Sequence record: NC_070983.1
From: Escherichia phage IME267
Reading direction: 5' to 3' (one strand)
Length of the DNA stretch: 64,000 nt
This document shows positions 20,667-41,311 of this stretch, piece by piece. Position numbers and translations under genes: made by a program. Positions within the stretch are counted from its first letter, which is position 1. Each line of letters starts with the position of its first letter. The notes beneath the pieces were generated by a model, which saw nothing but the letters and a program-made list of their open reading frames with translations, searched no databases and was not told the origin of the DNA.

Positions 20667-21316
20667 TATTGAATCATCCCTTGAAGATCTTCTTTATCAA
20701 AGTGCTTCTCTACTACCGCTTCATACAGATCACGATTCTCTGAATAACGACGATAGAAGGTTCCGTGTGAAATTCCCAACTCTTGCTGGATGTGATCATG
20801 TGGGATGCCGAGAAAGAGCATTGAGAACATGCTTGCCATCTTACGGTTTTCCATAATGTCACTCAGGTCTTGGAAGAAGAAAAAGATTCTAGATTCCAAG
20901 AACGGGTCTCCAGTAGAATCATGCTTATCCATCGCAATCTCTAAAGGACTTTCCCATGAATTCATCTCAGGAGGTCTAAACATATCAGCCTCTGGAATAG
21001 AGTAGATACGTCGGTCTCCAACTGTCTGGCGATTAGAACGAATCGACCAGATGATATTCTTGACACGATAAGTCATGTGCTCAATATCTTTTTCATCAGT
21101 GAGCAGAAGTTCTTCTTGCTTTGCAAACACAAAACGCCAAGCGTTCAGTAATACTTCCTGAGCAACATCCTCTGCCTCGTGATAGTCTTTAATGTCATAC
21201 ATAAAATACTTATGCACAACTTTCCAGTTCTCTCGATAAAATTCATCGAAGGTTGGATAATATTTAATAGGAATGCCATGAATACGATAGCGTGTGGGTG
21301 TTGTCTTCTTCTTCAT
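20666..21316 (-). CDS. Phage-encoded sigma factor (sigma70/ECF-like regions 2 and 4)
   Basis: Region-2-like [16 protein letters not shown] and region-4 HTH-like …[16 protein letters not shown]…. Confidence 0.65.
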
Positions 21317-29962: not shown

Positions 29963-30700
29963 TTATGATTTTTCAGATTCCATTGCTTTAACAATAGCTT
30001 TACAGAAACCTGAACGAACAATATCATCTGATTCGCCATCTACTAGAGCGGCAAATTCAAATAACTGGTGACGGTAGATGAAATCAGTAGCCCAATCAAG
30101 ACCGCTCTCACCACGCATGTCGTGCTGGTTAGTGTCCCCCATGCAGAACATCTGAGAGGTTTCACCAAGACGTGTCATGATTGAATATGCTTCATCAGGA
30201 GTAGTGTTCTGGAACTCATCAACAATCACGATAGCATCATTGAACGAGCGACCACGTAGATATTCCAGAGGTACGAACTCAATATTACCATTACCTACTT
30301 GACATTCGTAGAAACCTTTACCGTAGCGCTGAGTAATAACATCAACGATTGGCATTAGGTATGGTTCAAACTTCTCACGAAGCCCACCGGGAAGTAATCC
30401 AAGACTATTACCCATACCAACAGCAGGTCGGCTTAGGATAATCTTCTCAATCTTCCCACTCTTCAGAGCATCAATCACTGTAGAAGTGATTACGAAGGTC
30501 TTACCACAACCAGCAGGAGCATCTGTGAATACAACCTGTTTGGTTTTAATTGCATCAAGCAGCTCACTCTGGAATTGGTTCTGAGGTACTACCGGCTTAG
30601 CAAGAACTACTTCTTCAAATTCCCGCTTTCCTTTCTTGGTGACGAGAGCTTCACGACGTAATTCTCTCCGTGATGCTTTCCGAGATTCTCTACGACTCAT
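29963..30700 (-). CDS. phoH: PhoH-like ATPase
   Basis: Walker A …DAPAGCGKTFV… and conserved …ILSRPAVGMGNSLGLLPGGL…. Confidence 0.8.
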   Translation of the reverse strand: MSRRESRKASRRELRREALVTKKGKREFEEVVLAKPVVPQNQFQSELLDAIKTKQVVFTDAPAGCGKTFVITSTVIDALKSGKIEKIILSRPAVGMGNSLGLLPGGLREKFEPYLMPIVDVITQRYGKGFYECQVGNGNIEFVPLEYLRGRSFNDAIVIVDEFQNTTPDEAYSIMTRLGETSQMFCMGDTNQHDMRGESGLDWATDFIYRHQLFEFAALVDGESDDIVRSGFCKAIVKAMESEKS

Positions 30701-30878: not shown

Positions 30879-31199
30879 TCAGATTGATTTGTCCTTATGT
30901 AAACGGTATACTTCAGTAGCCATACAAGCTATACGCTCGTCATGTGGGAGATGCATACCAGTAGAGCCGTTCCATCCTTCGAACTCTGAATCAAAGAATC
31001 CAATAGGCTCGGGATACATCTCTTGCAAGGTGGTTAAGTCATCAGCCACTTGTTGCCACTTATCGTCAGACCAGATTGGGTCATCCAACCAATAATACAA
31101 ATAGGAGTGGATAAGCATCTGTGTTCTATGTCGTTTAATCACTTCAGCAGGACTGATTTCATTTCCGTTACCAGTCCTAAATGTATTATTGTTGATCAT
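30879..31199 (-). CDS. Hypothetical protein, weak resemblance to NAD-dependent ligase domain Ia
   Basis: …LIHSYLYYWLDDPIWSDDKWQQVADDL…MYPEP… pattern; tentative. Confidence 0.2.
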   Translation of the reverse strand: MINNNTFRTGNGNEISPAEVIKRHRTQMLIHSYLYYWLDDPIWSDDKWQQVADDLTTLQEMYPEPIGFFDSEFEGWNGSTGMHLPHDERIACMATEVYRLHKDKSI

Positions 31200-31847: not shown

Positions 31848-32498
31848 TTAGTGGGCTTCACGTAATGCATCCCAAGAGATTGGATATATTTTACGAAGCT
31901 CTTCATCAATGGTTGATGCGAACACTCGTACTTCGTACTGAGCATGGTCTGACAGTCGCTGACGACACAACTCTGACCAACCATATAGAGAACCGGTCCA
32001 TACCCACTCAGTGATCATACCCTGAGGTAATACGAATCGAGCTTGTTCTGGAGCAATAAACTTAATCAACTCATCATATGACTCAAGAGCTGTTTCATAT
32101 GCCCGATTAATCAGAACTAGTGCAGAGTTTTGCGCTCCTGTGGTGAGGAGATTCCCTGCACCTGCATGGAGGTCCGAAGGTCTTTCAAAAACCTCTTTAG
32201 GGATGAAGAGTTCAACTGCTCCATCTTTATACCTCCGGGACATTTCGTTCCACGAGAATCCAACTTGATGCTTGCCCAGCTGTCTCGCAATTGCGATTGG
32301 CGCTTTGCATCGGAAGCTAATTGTCGGATGGCGGAATGGTGTGACATGCTTTTCTCTGGCAAGGAACTTGATAAGGCGTTCATCTCGTTCATTTAACTCT
32401 CCTTCACGAGTAACCCCAAAGGAAACTCGAGCTGCATTAACAACAGATTTATCAGAACCCATTGCTTCAATTAGTGTTGCTTGTAATTGTTCGTTCAT
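31848..32498 (-). CDS. thyX: Flavin-dependent thymidylate synthase (ThyX family)
   Basis: …VVNAARVSFG…HVTPFRHP…KHQVGFSWNEMSRRY… matches ThyX conserved blocks. Confidence 0.75.
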   Translation of the reverse strand: MNEQLQATLIEAMGSDKSVVNAARVSFGVTREGELNERDERLIKFLAREKHVTPFRHPTISFRCKAPIAIARQLGKHQVGFSWNEMSRRYKDGAVELFIPKEVFERPSDLHAGAGNLLTTGAQNSALVLINRAYETALESYDELIKFIAPEQARFVLPQGMITEWVWTGSLYGWSELCRQRLSDHAQYEVRVFASTIDEELRKIYPISWDALREAH

Positions 32499-32512: not shown

Positions 32513-32728
32513 TTAGTAATGAATCTTTTTATAAATCAGGTTGCTTCCACTTTCTGTTTCAATCCCTTTCTGGATTGTAATCTTAGAAGCACCGGTATTA
32601 GCAATTTTTAAAGCTCGTTTAAAGCGGCGAGCCTCTCTCCGTGTTGTGTATGAGGAGAAGCTAGGGATTGTACTATCAAAATTAAACCACTTAACTACCC
32701 AAAAAGTAATCCAAGGTTTCTTTTCCAT
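32513..32728 (-). CDS. Small protein, member of TRQEAR…GKVHY paralog family
   Basis: Shares W…TRREARRFK…I…Y-ending pattern with 34593..34808 and 34808..35020. Confidence 0.4.
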   Translation of the reverse strand: MEKKPWITFWVVKWFNFDSTIPSFSSYTTRREARRFKRALKIANTGASKITIQKGIETESGSNLIYKKIHY

Positions 32729-32729
32729 A

Positions 32730-33005
32730 TTAAATACCTTTCAGAGCTGTATCTAAAAACGCACGGAGGTTTGATTCAGTTTGCATACCGGACAAGCTGT
32801 AGTGAGCACCACTGTTCATGTTAGGAACCACAAAGGATGGGATACTGCGAACACCATATTCAATGGCTCGCTCTCGACCATCACCTTCAGAGATATTTAC
32901 TTCTTCAACTTCTACGTTGTAATCAGCTACAACTTTCTTAAACACAGGAGCCATAGCTGCACATGGAGCACATGAATTACTATAAAACTTAATTACTTTA
33001 CTCAT
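32730..33005 (-). CDS. Thioredoxin/glutaredoxin-like protein
   Basis: CAPC active-site motif and cis-Pro region …SIPSF…; start set to MSKVIKF with AAGGA RBS. Confidence 0.6.
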   Translation of the reverse strand: MSKVIKFYSNSCAPCAAMAPVFKKVVADYNVEVEEVNISEGDGRERAIEYGVRSIPSFVVPNMNSGAHYSLSGMQTESNLRAFLDTALKGI

Positions 33006-33195
33006 TCTATTCCTTGTTAATAAACAGGTTGATATGACGCTGGGTAGCAGGAACAACAATAAAAGATTTATACTGACCTTTTGCTAAGTCATGAGCAATC
33101 TTCTTTGTCTGACCAAGACCCATCACACAGCCACTAACGATAATGGCATGTGCTTGTAATTCTTCAGGTAGGTTTAGTTTCACTCTTTGGGTTCC

Positions 33196-33381
33196 TTATA
33201 GCATGCAAAGAATAATAACAAGAGGTAGTGTTATAGCAAAATGTACCAGAACAACACTACCTAGCTTGATAGCTTTAACATCCTCTTCTGCTGGGTTTTC
33301 TTTAATTGCTAAATTTCGAGCTTTATATATAACAGTACCAACTATTAACGACCACACGGCCCACACAATCAGTGAAATCAT
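33196..33381 (-). CDS. Small two-helix membrane protein (tandem paralog)
   Basis: Two hydrophobic segments; paralog of 33391..33612. Confidence 0.4.
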   Translation of the reverse strand: MISLIVWAVWSLIVGTVIYKARNLAIKENPAEEDVKAIKLGSVVLVHFAITLPLVIILCML

Positions 33382-33390
33382 ATCAAACCC

Positions 33391-33612
33391 TTATGCAGTC
33401 AACAGGTGGAGAAGGAAAGGAATAACAACAGAGAAAATTACCAGAGCAATGCTGCCATGTTTAATGGGTTTAGCGTCATTCGGGTTCTCTTTAAGCATCT
33501 GTTTCTGAGCTACATAAACGATACCGCCAACAAAAATTGCCCATACAGACCATACGATTGCTGAAAACATACTCATATCCTTATAAAGAAGTTCGCCCCA
33601 CCTCTTAAACAA
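33391..33612 (-). CDS. Small two-helix membrane protein (tandem paralog)
   Basis: Shared …IVWSVW…KENP…IK(L/H)GS…. Confidence 0.4.
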   Translation of the reverse strand: MFKRWGELLYKDMSMFSAIVWSVWAIFVGGIVYVAQKQMLKENPNDAKPIKHGSIALVIFSVVIPFLLHLLTA

Positions 33613-33633
33613 AGAGACAGGGCGGAGGTTTGA

Positions 33634-34209
33634 TTAGTAAGACACATCACCACTGGAGTGGGACATGTTGCTCTTGACGAAGTAACAGAACTTGCCAAGA
33701 CCTTCATTAATTTCTTGAAGCATACTCTGGTCCACTGGATAGGTGCACAAGTCTGAATCAAACTCATCCATCTTCTCAATGATACACATAAGAGTCATGC
33801 ACACGTCGGAAAGCATACCATCCATGTCGAGATCAGCGTTACCTTCTCGGAACCAAGCACGACCTAAATAATTACTAGCAGTAGCATCCACTTTAACACA
33901 ATGAAAGCGCATACGCTCTGCTATTCGGTCGCCTGCCTCACGAGCATAATCTTCTAGTTCATCGAACATACCATGAACACCTTGGAAACCGGCTCCAGAG
34001 ACGTTCCAGTGGTAGTTCTTTGCTTTGATGTGTAGAAGTTCAAGGTTAGCCTGCACACCGCAAAGAATGTGCTCTAGGCTGTTACTGCTAATCAGTTTAT
34101 TCATTCCCTCAAGACGAGAGATAGAAGAGTCAGCAGTAGAGAATGGGTTGCTAGAACCCACTCGTGTTAGTTCTGGTAAGTCGAAGACATTATTATGCAT
34201 TAGGTGCAT
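33634..34209 (-). CDS. Dps-like ferritin-superfamily protein
   Basis: …NYHWNVSGAGFQGVHGMFDELEDYAREAGDRIAERM… resembles the Dps ferroxidase-site region. Confidence 0.5.
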   Translation of the reverse strand: MHLMHNNVFDLPELTRVGSSNPFSTADSSISRLEGMNKLISSNSLEHILCGVQANLELLHIKAKNYHWNVSGAGFQGVHGMFDELEDYAREAGDRIAERMRFHCVKVDATASNYLGRAWFREGNADLDMDGMLSDVCMTLMCIIEKMDEFDSDLCTYPVDQSMLQEINEGLGKFCYFVKSNMSHSSGDVSY

Positions 34210-34592
34210 CCCCTTCTAAGTTAGTTGAATTAGCTACGTTACGAGCAATGTTGTCCATGACCTGCTGGGTAATAACAATGCAATTCTGTGGGTCTACAGA
34301 CTTAGAACGCCCCATTTCAGGGTCATAGACTTTGACTCGCTTGGCTGTTGAGCCAGTAACTTGCAACACTTTGAGAAGATAACCTTGGTTTCCAATAGAC
34401 CATGCAACAACATCACGATTCTTGATATAACGACCAAGCATATCACGATGATAGAACTGCTGCATAACTTTAGCTTTGCTAATCTCTTCAGATGGCGGGG
34501 CCACTTTACTCAAATCTAACATAACTCTCTCCTGTTTCATACAATATTCTTATACTGTATATACATTTGAGAGTTATCATATCTACTACCAA

Positions 34593-34808
34593 CTAGTAAT
34601 AAACTTTGCTGGATATGAATCCAGCACTGTTATGGATATTTTCAATCCAACGATGAATCTCCACCTTTTCAGCGATTCCTAAAGCTTTTGTAGCTTTTAT
34701 AGTTTTCTTAGCAAGACGAGCCTCTTGTCTTGTGTTGAATAATTGAATACAATCACCACCAAGAGCTTTGTTAGCCCATTTAGTACGAACTGCCCACAAT
34801 TTATCCAT
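34593..34808 (-). CDS. Small protein, TRQEAR…GKVYY paralog family
   Basis: …NTRQEARLAKK…SSKVYY. Confidence 0.4.
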   Translation of the reverse strand: MDKLWAVRTKWANKALGGDCIQLFNTRQEARLAKKTIKATKALGIAEKVEIHRWIENIHNSAGFISSKVYY

Positions 34809-35020
34809 TAGTAATGTACCTTTCCACTGATATAGAAACGACCTGATTTAAAGTCCTGAGCTTTATGAATAGTGATCTTGTCGATGGTGCTTTCACAGCT
34901 TAATAGGAACTTCTTATGAGCGCGAGCTTCTTGACGGGTGTTTCTAATACCCATTGACTCTGTACCACTGCTCCAGTGAATACGAACTACCCAACGTCTT
35001 TTCATTGTTCCAAACTCCAT
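34808..35020 (-). CDS. Small protein, TRQEAR…GKVHY paralog family
   Basis: …NTRQEARAHKK…SGKVHY. Confidence 0.4.
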   Translation of the reverse strand: MEFGTMKRRWVVRIHWSSGTESMGIRNTRQEARAHKKFLLSCESTIDKITIHKAQDFKSGRFYISGKVHY

Positions 35021-35216: not shown

Positions 35217-35750
35217 TTATACACCCTTAGATGCAACTACACCATTACTGCCGTTGTATCGACCCTTCACTGCATAAGAGTCATCACCAGCGTGAGAGTG
35301 TTCGAACATAACCATTTGACCAACACGCATCCCAGCACGAACTCGTAAGCTATGATTATGGGTAACGTTATGAAATTCAAAGGTTAGTTTACTGCTGTTA
35401 AACCCTGCATCAGCCCAACCAGCATGGAGGTGGTTTAAACCACAACGAGCCATTGAGGAGCGAAGTACAAACAGGCTTGAGATGTTATCTGGAAGGTTAA
35501 ACTCTTCCATTGAGTGCGCTAAGAAGAATTGCCCCGGAGTGATAACAATACCATCTTCAGGGATTTTTACTTCTTTCCACTTGAGGTTTTCTTTAGCATC
35601 AATGTCAACAATTCCGTCAGCCTGTTCTTCAACAAGGATAGTATCACCAATACGGATATCCACGCTAGCAGCGTTAACATATTTATGCTCCGCATCTAAA
35701 AAGCCATTATCAATAACGCTGTGTAATTCTTGAGAACCTAAAAGACTCAT
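35217..35750 (-). CDS. dcd: dCTP deaminase (dUTPase superfamily)
   Basis: …GLNHLHAGWADAGFNSSKLTFEFHN…GMRVGQMVMFEH… conserved core. Confidence 0.75.
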   Translation of the reverse strand: MSLLGSQELHSVIDNGFLDAEHKYVNAASVDIRIGDTILVEEQADGIVDIDAKENLKWKEVKIPEDGIVITPGQFFLAHSMEEFNLPDNISSLFVLRSSMARCGLNHLHAGWADAGFNSSKLTFEFHNVTHNHSLRVRAGMRVGQMVMFEHSHAGDDSYAVKGRYNGSNGVVASKGV

Positions 35751-37198
35751 GAGTTTCTGTCTCCTTGTACAGATGATGCCAAATTATTAATCATGTTACG
35801 AGCTGTTTCACGAGATAATGTAACACCTGCTAAGTTGTTATGAAGCTCACCAGATAGCTCACGAGCAGCAGCTCGAAGTTCTGTACCAAGTGTAGTATCG
35901 GAGTGAGCCAAACCATTACGACGACTATAAGGTCGAGGAGCTTCGTTAGCGTCATTAGCCAATGATGCAAAACCAATATGAGCAGCTTCACGAGCCGCTA
36001 TAGTTGACACTCGATCTTCCGTAGGGGTTGGCAAATCACCAACTTCTACACGTTCTATATCACCAGCACGTAGACCCTGAACGACTGAGCTTACTGTTTC
36101 CCATGAACGACGAGAACGCTGTAAATCACCCATTGACGGAGAAGGAATAGGACGAGCAGTTCCTCCTTGGACATGCCATGTACGAGTATCCATTCCAGAA
36201 GAGCGTGCACTACCAAAACTGCCAGTGAAAGTGTCACGAGGTGCCATTGTAGGAGGAACTGCGAATCTTTCCTGTTGCCAAGAATCGCGTCTGTTAGTTC
36301 CCGGAGTCCAAGGCTGCGTGATTGCTTCAGCACCTATAGTGGTTAATCCGCTAGACCATTCTGTCTGTAGGTTAACTTCCTCGTCCAGATAACTACGACC
36401 CCTTTCCTGAGGAATGTTTAATATAGTTTCCATCATCTTCAGGGTATAATGACGACGCTGATTCTGATATAAATTTACACCAGCCATAGGTCCAACTAAA
36501 TCACTAATCAGGTGAACTTCTGGCTCACCGAAAGCTCCCATTGCAAGGTGCATATATTCGATAGAACTGCTATAAACTGCAACAGTTGCTTCAGGCCACT
36601 TTTTGTGAACATACTTCATTTCACGACTAGATACCACAGGAATGTCACGAGTGTATGACATTGCAAACAAACCTTCGTTTGACACATACATGTCATCAAG
36701 AGACATGAACCCCTGACAGATCATAGGAAAGCGACGGCTTAAAGTATCCATATCCAAAGGTAGATTAATCATCATCTGGATTTTAACTTGATCAATCTCA
36801 ATTTCCAGAATCTCTTGGAAAGTGAAAAGTGATTCAGTATAGGTTGTTCCACTGATAGGCTGAACTAGTCGAGATGTGACTTGAAGTCCTTTACTCTCTG
36901 TCCAAGACAAGAAGTTGTCAAGGAACAGTGCAGCATTACTTACGTTAGCAGGGCTGTTTTCCTGACGAGTGTTCCAACGAAACCCTCCTTGAACTAGGAA
37001 GATATCAACATCATTCGGAGTTCTATTTTGAAAGAACGTATCACGGATAGCACCACCTGCAATAACAGGGTAGATACCATCAGGAACTACGTTATCTCTG
37101 ATCAGGTTACGAATCAGGTCAAGCCCTACACTGAGGGCTTCTCCTTCTTGAAGGTTTAATTCAGACAATGGAATCTTAATCATTTCTACATTTTCCAA
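35747..37198 (-). CDS. Pol-beta-superfamily nucleotidyltransferase (CCA-adding/poly(A)-polymerase-like head) with low-complexity C-terminal half
   Basis: …[24 protein letters not shown]… fits the GGxVRD…DxD head-domain signature. Confidence 0.45.
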
Positions 37199-37734
37199 TT
37201 TAGAGATGGGGGATTCTTATAATCAAATCCAGCCATTTGACAAAGACACATGTAAACTTTAACTGTCAAGTTAACGTCTTGCTCACAATAGGTGAACATG
37301 TCTTCAGTGAATGCGTCCCATGCCTCCTCCTGTTCTCCATAATCTCCTTTCAGCTCCCCAAGAAACTCGCCCCATTGTTTGAGGCCGTGACCACGAGGGC
37401 CATGTCTAGGGTCGCCTTTGGGGTATTCTGGACTATCACCAATACGGTCAGGCTTGAGATATCTACTCAGGCACAAAGTATCGAAGACGTTAAAGCGAAA
37501 AGGTATCACATGAGAATAAAACTTAAACAAAGCAGGAAGGTCAAAATCAATAATATTGTGACCTATTACTACATCAGCTTCTTTCAGTTTGTGTAGTGCT
37601 TCTTCAATTTGGTGAGGGCGATACCCCCACCGCTCTCCAGATAATACATCAAATATCCAGATACACCAGACATTCTGAATACCATCATAGAGATTATCCC
37701 CCTCGATATCAAACGCATACAGTTTCTTTACCAC
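37186..37734 (-). CDS. Stand-alone 3'-5' exonuclease (DEDDy/DnaQ-like)
   Basis: Exo I …FDIEGD…, Exo II …[12 protein letters not shown]…, Exo III …YCEQDV…. Confidence 0.65.
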
Positions 37735-39518
37735 GGACGTGCCTCCCCTTCTTGTGCAAGTAAGGAAGCTGCATCCTCTCCATTGGTAACGGTAAAAGGA
37801 TGCTCTTCATCAACTTCATGATCTTCTCGTTCTACAAGACGACCTGTTTCATTGATGTATTTGGTATAGCAAACCCCTGTCTGTCCATAGTTACGCTCTT
37901 TGAGCAGTCGTATGATTGACAAGTTTTTACCTAACCCATCCGCTTGTTTGTTACGTTCAAAACCAATAATACACTGACACCAGCGCATCAATGAACGTGA
38001 ACCAGTAAACTGTACTTCTTTAACCTGACCACCTTCTTCGTGGGGTGCACCACCTGCCGGAGCGTTCAAGTGAGATAATACAAAAGCAGTGAAGTCTAAT
38101 TCCTTACACATACCAGCAAGCTCTGAAGCAATCTTGCTGATTTCTGTGTTTACCTCAGATGGGGTTAAGTGAGATACCAATGCAGTGATGTTATCAAGAA
38201 TGATAAATTTACACTGATTCTCAACTACCCAAAAGCGAATACACTGCTTAATGTCTTCCCACTCGTTCTGCCCAAAGTTGTCATACAAGAAAAACTTATC
38301 AGCGTATCGAAGTGCTTCATCTCGTAGCTGGCTTTCTTCGTACTCAACATCCGGTCGGTGGAATGGAATAGATGCAGATTTACCTGCAATGTTCTTAACA
38401 GACATGCCTACCTTCTCTTCCAAGAAGAAGCCACCACCATTAAAACCATGCTCAAGGCAAAGCCATGCTACTAGTTCGTGTGCGATTAAGGTTTTACCTG
38501 AACCAACACCACCGCCGATTGCAACCATCTCTCCCCAACGAATACCAAAGGTCATGTCGTTAAGAGTTTTCCACGGATAAGGAATACCCCATTCCGCTTT
38601 CTTCAGAGCATCTTCGAGGCAATCAAAAACTGTAACAGCTCCAGCAGGAGATTCCCGCTTAGCTGAATATTTCAGATTGTTGAAAAGCTCTTGACCTCTC
38701 CCTGCAAGTAACATGTCGTTTGCATCTTTGATTTCCTTTTCTTGTCCGTTATAAGTGAACGTACCTTTTGGAATCCTTGCAAACTTAACATGCGGGTACA
38801 GAGAACGACCCTTAGTTAAAGCAATCTCACCTGCATCATCATTGTCCATGCAGAGTACAATCTCCTCGAAACCATTAATAAAATCACGGTTTCTTGATAA
38901 TACAGAAGAGATTGAACCTGCACCGAACGGAAGAGAGACGCAAGCAGGTTTGATGTTAGTTGCGTTTGTAAACGCGGTAAGTACGTGGAACCCAGACATA
39001 CAAGAGAGAGGATCTTCAAAGATGAAGAGTTTCTTGTTGTATACGTCACCACGTTGTGCTTGAGCCATACCAAACAAGTCGGCTTCTTTCACATTACCTA
39101 CATAATAGAACTTCTTGCTGTCTAGAAGTTTTACTTCATATCCAACAATGTTCCCATCACGTTCACGAGGGAAGAAGTAGCTGTCAGGAGTTTGACCATC
39201 TGTTTGGCTTAAACCGATACGGCATCCATAACGTTCAGATACAGCTTTAGGAATTAAGCGACGAGTCAACTCTCCCTGAGGAAGCTCTAAGCAATCGTCT
39301 AGGACTTCTCGGAGTTCTTCAGGGGACAGCTCTTTCTTTTCATTAGGAGTGGGCGTCGTTCCTTTCTCGAAGATTTCATACGCACCACATCTGTTACATG
39401 AACCCCACTCCTCACCGGACTCTTCATTTCGGAAGAGAATCATGTGATTGCGGGTCTTATCACGACCATGAGAGATACACTCTTTACAGCCAGTGTCTCC
39501 CAAAATGATCTTTGACAT
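37728..39518 (-). CDS. Primase-helicase (Zn-ribbon + TOPRIM + DnaB-like helicase)
   Basis: N-terminal CxxC…CxxC, TOPRIM …CMDNDDAGE…, Walker A …GGGVGSGKT…. Confidence 0.85.
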
Positions 39519-40380: not shown

Positions 40381-41311
40381 GGCTGCTTACCAATCATGTT
40401 GGAAACCAGAATATCCAGAGAAGATGATTGATCGGATTGGCTTTTCAGGGAATTCTTCAAAACATCCCTTAATGGCTTTCTTGGTTTCATCAGAAATTGA
40501 CTCTTTTTCACCAAACCAATATTCTTCAAAAATATCAGAGAAGATATAAGTTCGGTATCTTTCCAAGTCATAAAAACCTTCCACTGCACTTGTAACAGCT
40601 CTACTAATTACACTTGAAGCTACAGGAAATAAGTCACCGTGTTCCAGAAACAAGCACCAACGATCAAAGAGAGGAATCTCTTCATCTTTCAGAAGACTTT
40701 CTAACTCTTCCTTTGCCTCTTTCTTGTGCTTCTCAAAGAGGTTTTTGGAATACTCTACATCTAAGATACGACTTTTAAACATATCCAGTTTATTATTAAC
40801 CATTTTACAACCTCTAGTTAAATTCGAACTAGCCTCCTCTTTCGAAGAGGCTAAAGCAAATTATTCTACTTCGAAGTGTTTGATCACACCAGTCAGTACA
40901 TCAGATTGGAATGTACCAACTAGCTCTGTACCTCGGAAGAAGTTAACACTTGTTCCAAGTGATTCAAAGCGATCTGCTTGAATGTCCAGAGATTGAATAT
41001 TTCCTTCTGCTGACATTGTACGAAACATGATTGTGTATTTATTCACAGACTTGTTACTCCCTTATCTGCTTGTGCAATTGCGATGATACGCTCAGCACAT
41101 TCCATTGAATATTTATCACCTCGTTTGAGGAAGGTGATGATTGCAGAGAACTGATTACCAATCACTCTCTTATTTGTGATACCAAACTCTTCACAGAGTT
41201 GGTTGATAGCTTTACGAGAGCCTACAATCAGAGGCTCTTTTTCTTCGGTCATTCCACGGCTGATCAAATCTTCGATAGACAACATTACAAATTCCTTTTT
41301 GTTTAATTTAA

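Follow-up and report, generated by a model that had tools for sequence, protein, structure and literature searches.

Why would a virulent coliphage keep a mini-ferritin gene amid its replication genes, and what would the encoded protein do in the infected cell? This question is raised by a locus of Escherichia phage IME267 (record NC_070983.1), from which a stretch of 64,000 nucleotides, hereafter the window, was analyzed. A first-pass annotation of the sequence had proposed that positions 33634-34209 encode a Dps-like protein of the ferritin superfamily, that a peptide within it represents the ferroxidase-centre region, and that this gene, carried by a replication block next to thioredoxin, ThyX and dCTP deaminase genes, could protect replicating phage DNA or manipulate host iron and redox state.

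The open reading frame and the quoted peptide are both real. They had been given without a strand and were found on the minus strand, where the longest ORF (33634-34209) begins with an ATG and encodes 191 aa; the plus-strand frame across the same positions is riddled with stop codons. The peptide NYHWNVSGAGFQGVHGMFDELEDYAREAGDRIAERM corresponds to residues 65-100 of this long ORF (window positions 33910-34017). A second ATG at position 34200 is M4 of the long ORF, the start initially proposed being three codons further upstream. The motif GAAGGGG directly abuts the first ATG and precedes the second one by 9 nt. Furthermore, all public homologs have 186-196 aa and an N-terminus starting with MHNN... 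Because of this Shine-Dalgarno spacing, of the length of the homologs and of their MHNN... starts, the true start of dps is most likely the second ATG, which predicts a protein of 188 aa.
33634..34200, minus strand: dps (mini-ferritin) gene, ortholog of phiEco32 gp67, 188 aa plus stop (based on the ORF, the Shine-Dalgarno spacing, homolog lengths, Pfam, PHROG, PDB and the structural model)
34210..34216, minus strand: Shine-Dalgarno motif GAAGGGG, read from the sequence
Residue numbers used below (H64 and others) are counted from the M at 34200; those of the long ORF are higher by 3.

The membership of this protein in the Dps family is a firm prediction from sequence and from modelled structure. 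It matches the Pfam Ferritin family (PF00210; E = 8e-8, 32.8 bits for a gathering cut-off of 24.5), this match covering helices A and B only, and PHROG 3636 over residues 40-184 (E = 4.5e-52). A single-sequence search of PDB sequences retrieved about 50 Dps chains at E < 0.1, the best one being Dps2 of Mycobacterium smegmatis (1.1e-9). When a profile of 28 phage homologs was compared with the PDB, Dps structures were matched over the whole domain with E-values ranging from 3.5e-27 to 1e-12, the top matches being Dlp-2 of Bacillus anthracis (3.5e-27), then MrgA of Bacillus subtilis and Dps of Staphylococcus aureus. The AlphaFold2 model of the monomer has a mean pLDDT of 81.5, with values above 90 at residues 41-178 and low values at residues 1-39. 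It displays a four-helix bundle (helices 26-66, 72-99, 126-147 and 155-178) with a short helix (108-113) in a long B-C loop. The best 50 PDB matches of this model found by Foldseek are all Dps proteins, with target-normalised TM scores of 0.8-0.9 and, for the best ones, rmsd of 1.2-1.7 Å. Thus, the ferritin-like fold, on whose recovery by profile or structure searches the first-pass annotation had made its proposal depend, was recovered by every method that was run: Pfam, sequence and profile searches of the PDB, and AlphaFold2 followed by Foldseek.

The quoted peptide had been likened to the Dps ferroxidase-centre region, and the positions of the ligands bear this out.
33916..34011, minus strand: ferroxidase codons H64, W65, H76, D80, D91 and E95, located in helices A and B
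The spacing of these residues (H67, W68, H79, D83, D94 and E98 in the numbering of the long ORF) is identical to that of H51, W52, H63, D67, D78 and E82 of E. coli Dps, in a sequence whose numbering reproduced the published ligand positions. In an alignment of 28 homologs, H64, W65, H76, D91 and E95 are invariant and D80 is conserved in at least 90% of the sequences.

The phage protein has the same bundle and the same ligand spacing as cellular Dps proteins such as M. smegmatis Dps2 (2z90), B. anthracis Dlp-2 (1jig), B. subtilis MrgA (2chp) and E. coli Dps (1dps). However, it is only 18-26% identical to them, lacks a Lys-rich tail, and has six cysteines and extra N- and C-terminal segments. 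Its score against NCBIfam NF006975, the equivalog of enterobacterial Dps, is 34.8 bits for a cut-off of 114, the match being restricted to residues 56-97; since this score falls short of the equivalog cut-off, the host Dps and the phage protein are not orthologs. When 1.84 billion representatives were searched exhaustively with HMMER, only 13 clusters were retrieved at E <= 1e-10, compared to 554 at E <= 1e-3, which places the protein on a small, isolated branch. In GenBank, the same gene is labelled "integrase" in IME267, 101114UKE3, ES17, MLP3 and other phages. This label is refuted, and we leave it no probability at all: it is backed by product names only, no tyrosine or serine recombinase domain was found with Pfam or NCBIfam, the sole Pfam family matched is Ferritin, the fold is that of Dps, and the phages are virulent. 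"Integrase" is therefore a propagated annotation error.

The window belongs to a phiEco32-like prolate podophage. Its Dps protein is 100% identical to that of IME267. The DNA of the region is 95-98% identical to that of Escherichia phages HC-25922, 101114UKE3, Bas87, ECBP2 and SU7 (Gordonclarkvirinae, Suseptimavirus-like) and 80-90% identical to that of the Kuravirus group, which includes phiEco32. The gene is the same as phiEco32 gp67 and its Gordonclarkvirinae orthologs (SU10 CDS67, SU7_66, ECBP2, IME267), protein identity reaching 82% with phiEco32 gp67 and 94-100% with the Suseptimavirus-like orthologs. In phiEco32 too, this gene lies between gene 68 and the thioredoxin and ThyX genes, with the same promoter sequence upstream, and no substantial difference was found apart from a variable linker described below. 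The Dps reading is thus correct but already known: the record of phiEco32 gp67 (ABY52868.1; genome paper of 2008) reads "DNA-binding protein; member of the Dps family", and the claim made for the window is an existing annotation. The study of phage SU10 (PMC4281155, 2014) found that CDS67, which has a Dps domain, is one of the few genes common to all five C3 phages then sequenced, thioredoxin CDS65 and CDS68 being likewise in this shared set. In the literature searched, we found no biochemical or genetic study of any phage Dps.

The setting in a replication and nucleotide-metabolism block is borne out by the neighbour genes, all located on the minus strand:
29963..30700, minus strand: PhoH
31848..32498, minus strand: ThyX
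within ORF 32730..33059, minus strand: thioredoxin
35217..35750, minus strand: dCTP deaminase
37186..37734, minus strand: DNA polymerase exonuclease subunit
37728..39518, minus strand: primase/helicase
The thioredoxin, ThyX and dCTP deaminase genes announced by the first-pass annotation are therefore present, but none of them is immediately adjacent to dps.

A tblastn search of 50,697 phage records detected the Dps subfamily in 132 of them, nearly all being C3-morphotype podophages of Escherichia, Shigella, Salmonella, Cronobacter, Proteus and Aeromonas, plus two cyanophage records. A second tblastn search with the distant Dps of the Aeromonas phage LAh_8 gave the same set, the only additions being three weak matches in Streptomyces phages. 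The phage protein belongs to a small and divergent branch of Dps which, in the phage collection searched, is limited to such phages. In four divergent lineages (Gordonclarkvirinae, 7-11, Privateer and LAh_8), dps is always found amid genes encoding ThyX, thioredoxin, dCTP deaminase, PhoH or anaerobic RNR: (i) ThyX, thioredoxin, dCTP deaminase and PhoH in the window and in phiEco32, (ii) ThyX, directly upstream of dps, in 7-11, (iii) thioredoxin and a small NrdD-like gene in Privateer, and (iv) NrdD, NrdG and an ATP-cone regulator in LAh_8. The Dps proteins of the 7-11-like, Privateer-like and Lahexavirus prolate podophages are short forms that also belong to PHROG 3636, are 34-42% identical to the window protein and carry the same ferroxidase residues. 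They differ by the lack of the N-terminal extension of about 40 aa and of its MHNNxFDLP peptide.

The closest partner of dps is a small gene located just upstream.
34193..34522, minus strand: gp68-like gene, 109 aa, basic protein (pI 9.1), PHROG 10984 (E = 1.8e-62)
The end of this gene, stop codon included, shares 8 nt with the beginning of dps (ATGCATAA), so that both genes are coupled in translation. The gp68-like proteins are basic in all lineages (pI 8.8-9.7). The one encoded by the window has no match in Pfam, NCBIfam or PDB sequences. Its AlphaFold2 model, a small five-stranded beta-barrel, is of low confidence (pLDDT 64), and Foldseek run with this low-confidence model gave no match below E = 0.01, retrieving only generic small barrels of the Tudor, SH3 or KOW type. 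Homologs sharing 36-38% identity are encoded by 7-11, Privateer and LAh_8, so that gp68-like genes accompany all three short-form lineages. In Privateer and LAh_8, the gp68-like gene is immediately upstream of dps with the same TAATG overlap as here; in 7-11, it is present but separated from dps. That a basic and an acidic protein are conserved together as a coupled pair suggests that their functions are linked.

On the minus strand, the elements of the locus follow each other in the order hairpin (34626-34607), promoter element (34568-34560), gp68-like gene (34522-34193), dps (34200-33634) and second hairpin (33624-33594). Two other genes of the window, homologous to transcription regulators of phiEco32, are also relevant here.
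34607..34626, minus strand: 8-bp hairpin upstream of the promoter, at the 3' end of the preceding small ORF (terminator scan; -13.5 kcal/mol, z = -3.95)
34560..34568, minus strand: AAATGTATA, putative middle promoter element for the phage sigma factor (gp36 type), one mismatch to the consensus tAATGTAtA
33594..33624, minus strand: 13-bp hairpin in the gap of 57 nt that follows the dps stop (terminator scan; -18.8 kcal/mol, z = -2.5)
20672..21316, minus strand: ECF-type sigma factor, homolog of phiEco32 gp36 (tblastn, 80% identity over 215 aa, E = 4e-119)
41046..41285, minus strand: homolog of phiEco32 gp79 (tblastn, 75% identity over 80 aa, E = 9e-40)
Over the 40 nt that surround AAATGTATA, the sequence is identical to that found upstream of gene 68 of phiEco32. 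According to a passage of PMC8948821 that refers to earlier mapping, a gp36-dependent promoter lies upstream of phiEco32 gene 68 and is one of six mapped experimentally, with tAATGTAtA as their consensus. The combination found in the window, a predicted promoter element and a phage-encoded gp36 homolog, is that of a putative middle transcription unit of the phiEco32 type, and this homolog would be expected to drive the promoter at 34560-34568. A scan for sigma-70 promoters gave fewer sites than expected by chance and, therefore, no host-type promoter is proposed for the gp68-dps unit. The gp79 protein inhibits host sigma-70 transcription and activates gp36-dependent transcription (PMC8948821). 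The downstream hairpin could plausibly terminate the gp68-dps transcript or stabilise its 3' end. In phiEco32 and SU7, the 11 pairs closest to the base of the stem are identical and the loop differs; no covariation was seen and the U-tract is weak. The upstream hairpin, common to SU7 and absent from phiEco32, is a candidate terminator that would insulate the gp68-dps unit.

The most distinctive features of the protein are its charge and its tails. The subunit is acidic (pI 4.8, net charge -13, i.e. about -156 per 12-mer). The N-tail, i.e. the 49 residues ahead of the conserved QANLELL of helix A, includes only three K/R and has a net charge of -2; the C-tail has a net charge of +1 and is not basic. 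Across the long-form clade, N-tails have two to six K/R per 45-56 residues and a net charge of 0 to -3. A Lys/Arg-rich DNA-contacting tail like that of E. coli Dps is absent from both the N- and the C-terminus; since neither tail is basic, DNA binding by a Lys-rich tail as in E. coli is not available to this protein. For this clade, the "DNA-binding" label thus appears doubtful from the composition of the tails.
34075..34200, minus strand: clade-specific N-terminal extension of about 42 aa (based on the alignment, tail charges, region-wise pN/pS and low pLDDT)
The extension, negatively charged and not rich in Lys/Arg, consists of (i) a terminal peptide MHNN[VPI]F[DN]LPx[LVM], (ii) a variable linker and (iii) a conserved helix SxSRL[E/D]xM, of which helix A is the continuation. 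In the alignment, the family can be divided into three forms: long (found here, with peptide, linker and helix), medium (helix only) and short. In the short form of the 7-11-type phages, a short basic tail MLxARPKR with a net charge of +2 replaces the extension in most of the sequences sampled (P0029, P0030 and P0032-34).

The comparison with phiEco32 gp67 shows how unevenly this protein is constrained. Identity and pN/pS are 75% and 0.14 for residues 1-12, 25% and 0.55 for the linker (residues 13-25), 89% and 0.10 for the core, and 100% and 0.00 for the last 10 residues. For the whole gene, the Nei-Gojobori dN/dS is 0.055, with dS saturated; dps is therefore under strong purifying selection. 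A conserved peptide on a variable tether, which would be displayed in twelve copies per presumed cage, looks like a docking motif. Its likeness to known clamp-binding or protease-recognition motifs was considered and rejected as too loose. It may also be observed that neither this conserved N-terminal peptide nor the gp68 partner has a role in a model restricted to a ferroxidase cage.

What, then, is this protein for? The roles put forward by the first-pass annotation, protection of replicating DNA or manipulation of iron and redox state, are reasonable suggestions and agree with the data. The reading that we favour, and consider somewhat more probable than all the others together, is that of a ferroxidase cage made in the middle phase, which would limit the damage done by Fenton chemistry while phage DNA is synthesised. 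It starts from what was observed in the window, namely the fold and the catalytic residues of the protein, the purifying selection acting on its gene, and the gene arrangement and promoter sequence of the locus. The gp68-like gene and dps would be transcribed during the middle phase, if the timing in this phage is that of phiEco32, by the RNA polymerase of the host associated with the phage sigma factor, and translation of Dps would be coupled to that of gp68. The four-helix bundles would assemble, presumably like those of relatives, into a hollow cage of 12 subunits. At the dimer interface, a ferroxidase site formed by H64, H76 and D80 of one subunit and by D91 and E95 of its partner would oxidise Fe2+, and Fe3+ would be deposited within the cage. 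Dps proteins carry out Fe2+ oxidation preferentially with H2O2. Both reactants of the Fenton reaction would thus be removed from the infected cell and hydroxyl radicals would be suppressed while phage DNA and dNTPs are made, which would be the physiological benefit for the phage.

This ferroxidase-cage reading also offers a rationale for a phage-driven copy of dps. At the middle stage, host sigma-70 transcription is thought to be shut off by gp79; because of this shut-off, the host would probably be unable to induce its own dps and OxyR response, and a copy under phage control would make sense. During lytic infection by phage YerA41, some of the strongest inductions in the host concern the genes for Dps, catalase and peroxiredoxin (PMC7354516), and this induction indicates that infection is accompanied by oxidative stress. 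However, phage 7-11 lacks gp79 and host shut-off (PMC8948821). Since it nevertheless keeps dps, compensation of the host shut-off cannot be the whole rationale.

Other functions have to be weighed against the ferroxidase cage. The protein could coat and condense phage DNA that is being replicated or is about to be packaged, much as E. coli Dps does with the nucleoid, iron chemistry being secondary. The location of dps within the replication block and the "DNA-binding protein" annotation in phiEco32, SU7, 7-11 and other phages would fit, as would the basic N-tails of the short-form relatives of 7-11 type; moreover, the co-conserved basic gp68-like partner could provide the contact with DNA in trans. 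However, this annotation looks like a transfer of the family name, and DNA binding is lacking in many true Dps proteins, for example in those of Listeria innocua and Agrobacterium tumefaciens. As the protein is acidic and devoid of any basic tail throughout this clade, direct coating of the E. coli type is unlikely in it, and we consider DNA coating as a whole improbable, though less so than the readings that follow. The cage could instead store host iron and, in mid-infection, donate it to the diiron site of the host class Ia RNR or to the Fe-S clusters of the anaerobic RNR activase. This would agree with the intact ferroxidase ligands and with the persistent linkage of dps to nucleotide-metabolism genes, in particular the NrdD/NrdG-type genes that adjoin it in LAh_8 and Privateer. 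Yet no RNR gene was found among the neighbouring genes examined in the window and no iron-release partner is evident. In addition, Dps cages, which hold little iron (about 500 atoms), are generally seen as detoxifiers rather than stores. A role as iron donor therefore seems quite unlikely to us.

A location in the virion deserves separate consideration. Dps could be packaged in the elongated head of C3 podophages, where it would organise or protect the packaged DNA or be delivered with it. In Privateer, the Dps homolog was one of about 10 proteins detected by mass spectrometry in virions purified through a step gradient and an equilibrium gradient of CsCl, its function being stated as unverified (PMC7881722, 2021). 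A purely intracellular enzyme does not predict this detection. Furthermore, the subfamily is almost confined to lineages of C3-morphotype podophages in the 50,697 phage records. Against a packaged protein, dps belongs to the middle (replication) cluster, behind a predicted middle promoter, and not to the late structural cluster. A cage of 9 nm could not exit by way of the portal and, once loaded with iron, may be dense enough to co-band with phage in CsCl. The SU10 CDS67 protein was also detected by mass spectrometry (35.8% coverage), which speaks for expression of the gene, but in a crude preparation, a PEG-precipitated lysate without CsCl, in which thioredoxin and DNA polymerase were detected as well and for which the authors warned of the possible presence of middle proteins (PMC4281155). 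In the main text of the cryo-EM study of SU10, the ejection proteins are identified as gp20-24 and Dps is not mentioned; the text of its supplement matches neither gp67, Dps nor thioredoxin, nor even gp24, and is therefore uninformative on virion content. Taken as a whole, a virion component is, in our view, very unlikely. A bolder proposal covers two variants, either that the Dps of C3 phages is truly enclosed in or associated with the capsid, or that an acidic cage is tethered to phage DNA or to the replisome by its N-terminal peptide and the basic gp68; we would give it only a slight chance. If either variant were true, it would explain the confinement to C3 phages, the detection in CsCl-purified Privateer particles, and the conservation of both the terminal peptide and gp68. 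If the capsid variant were true, a ferritin-superfamily protein would lie inside an HK97-fold head, as a viral counterpart of encapsulin-ferritin compartments.

Comparison with other systems helps to delimit these readings. Encapsulin nanocompartments with ferritin-like cargo provide no more than an analogy, which bears on the virion-cargo reading alone. Their shells have the HK97 fold, and the likeness lies in the association of a ferritin-superfamily protein with such a shell. They differ from the present case in that no encapsulin-type targeting peptide was recognised, by eye, in the phage Dps, in that dps lies outside the structural module, and in that its enclosure in the capsid is hypothetical. 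Dps-like genes have also been described in Lactobacillus plantarum myophages, in the gut 'Gratiaviridae' and in 36 other gut phage genomes. Like the gene studied here, they lie near DNA-metabolism genes, and the literature reads them as a putative protection against oxidative stress. They belong to unrelated phages, were not detected by tblastn with the window protein and are independent acquisitions.

The annotation of this gene as Dps adds nothing in itself, since the label dates back to the phiEco32 genome and the gene is a listed core gene of C3 podophages. What this analysis adds beyond annotation is (i) the acidic character of a protein devoid of a basic tail, (ii) its clade-specific N-terminal extension, (iii) its coupling with gp68 and (iv) its putative gp36-type promoter, the sequence of which is identical to that of a promoter mapped in phiEco32. 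Two labels that are widespread in the records also prove problematic: "integrase" is an error, and "DNA-binding protein" lacks support in this clade. The residual interest of the gene thus lies in this doubtful DNA-binding label, in the conserved peptide and gp68, in the restriction to prolate podophages and in the single report of virion association. The subfamily offers a clean test system, with virulent coliphages, a defined middle promoter, a conserved partner, and natural forms with either a long acidic tail or a short basic one. A packaged Dps, if shown, would be a different and more surprising result. Overall, knowing whether a lytic phage needs its own protection against Fenton chemistry once the stress responses of its host have been shut off would clarify how oxidative and iron stress are handled during phage replication.

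The long-form phage Dps, the clade form with an N-terminal extension of about 42 aa found in the window, carries 5-6 cysteines per protein, whereas E. coli Dps is not known to have any. Within the clade, several of these cysteines are conserved, namely those of LC close to helix A, of MCMTLxC on helix C and of CYFV on helix D. They may be redox-active or may just form part of the buried core. All C3 phages (prolate podophages) have a thioredoxin gene conserved together with dps.

Other ORFs in the region of the dps gene and the overlapping basic gp68-like gene are:

30879-31199, minus strand: 106-aa protein, PF22745 match (E=8e-34)
32513-32728, minus strand: small ORF (70-71 aa), between thioredoxin and ThyX
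33196-33381, minus strand: 61-aa protein with two hydrophobic segments, PHROG 9296 match (unknown function)
33391-33576, minus strand: 61-aa protein with two hydrophobic segments, PHROG 9296 match (unknown function)
34593-34808, minus strand: small ORF (70-71 aa), just upstream of the gp68-dps unit
34808-35020, minus strand: small ORF (70-71 aa), in tandem with the preceding one
35747-37198, minus strand: 483-aa protein, PHROG 12715 "nucleotidyltransferase" match (E about 1e-165)

The three 70-71-aa ORFs are paralogous (32-35% identity) and share the motifs W..V..W, TRxEAR..K and K.xI, as well as K[VI]xY at the C-terminus; none of them matches a Pfam family. The tandem 61-aa pair, whose members are 45% identical, lies directly 3′ of dps, whereas phiEco32 has a single annotated gene between dps and thioredoxin. 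Of the domains of NAD-dependent DNA ligase, the 106-aa protein matches just Ia, the NAD+-binding one at the N-terminus, so that Ia stands alone here; the phiEco32 counterpart bears the annotation "NAD-dependent DNA ligase" even though the adenylation, OB and other domains are missing from it. No Pfam family was found for the 483-aa protein, and its Ser/Arg/Gly/Thr-rich C-terminal half looks, by eye, of low complexity or disordered.

The phiEco32 gp36-sigma promoter consensus, TAATGTATA, has five exact copies in the window: 13793 (+), 22914 (-), 22985 (+), 29951 (-) and 61502 (-). Two of them, 22914 (-) and 22985 (+), point away from each other and may lie at a boundary between gene clusters transcribed in opposite directions. 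With at most one mismatch, 23 copies were observed for 19 expected, which is not above chance; a site therefore carries meaning only where its context fits.

In two distant relatives, dps is immediately followed by a gene for a small protein, about 90-98 aa long:

Privateer locus L004, 4398-4694: labelled an NrdD-like ribonucleotide reductase fragment
LAh_8 locus L005, 4429-4701: annotated as a Zn-ribbon/ATP-cone regulator

These annotations hint that Dps is tied to anaerobic ribonucleotide reduction in both phages.

Many GenBank records, including those of IME267, 101114UKE3, ES17, MLP3, IMEP8 and EcoN5, name the product of the dps gene (33634-34200, minus strand) "integrase". This identity was rejected, since the gene product contains no recombinase domain; the label is therefore a propagated annotation error, and the phage group is virulent. 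Such an error could lead phage-therapy screening to misflag virulent phages as temperate.
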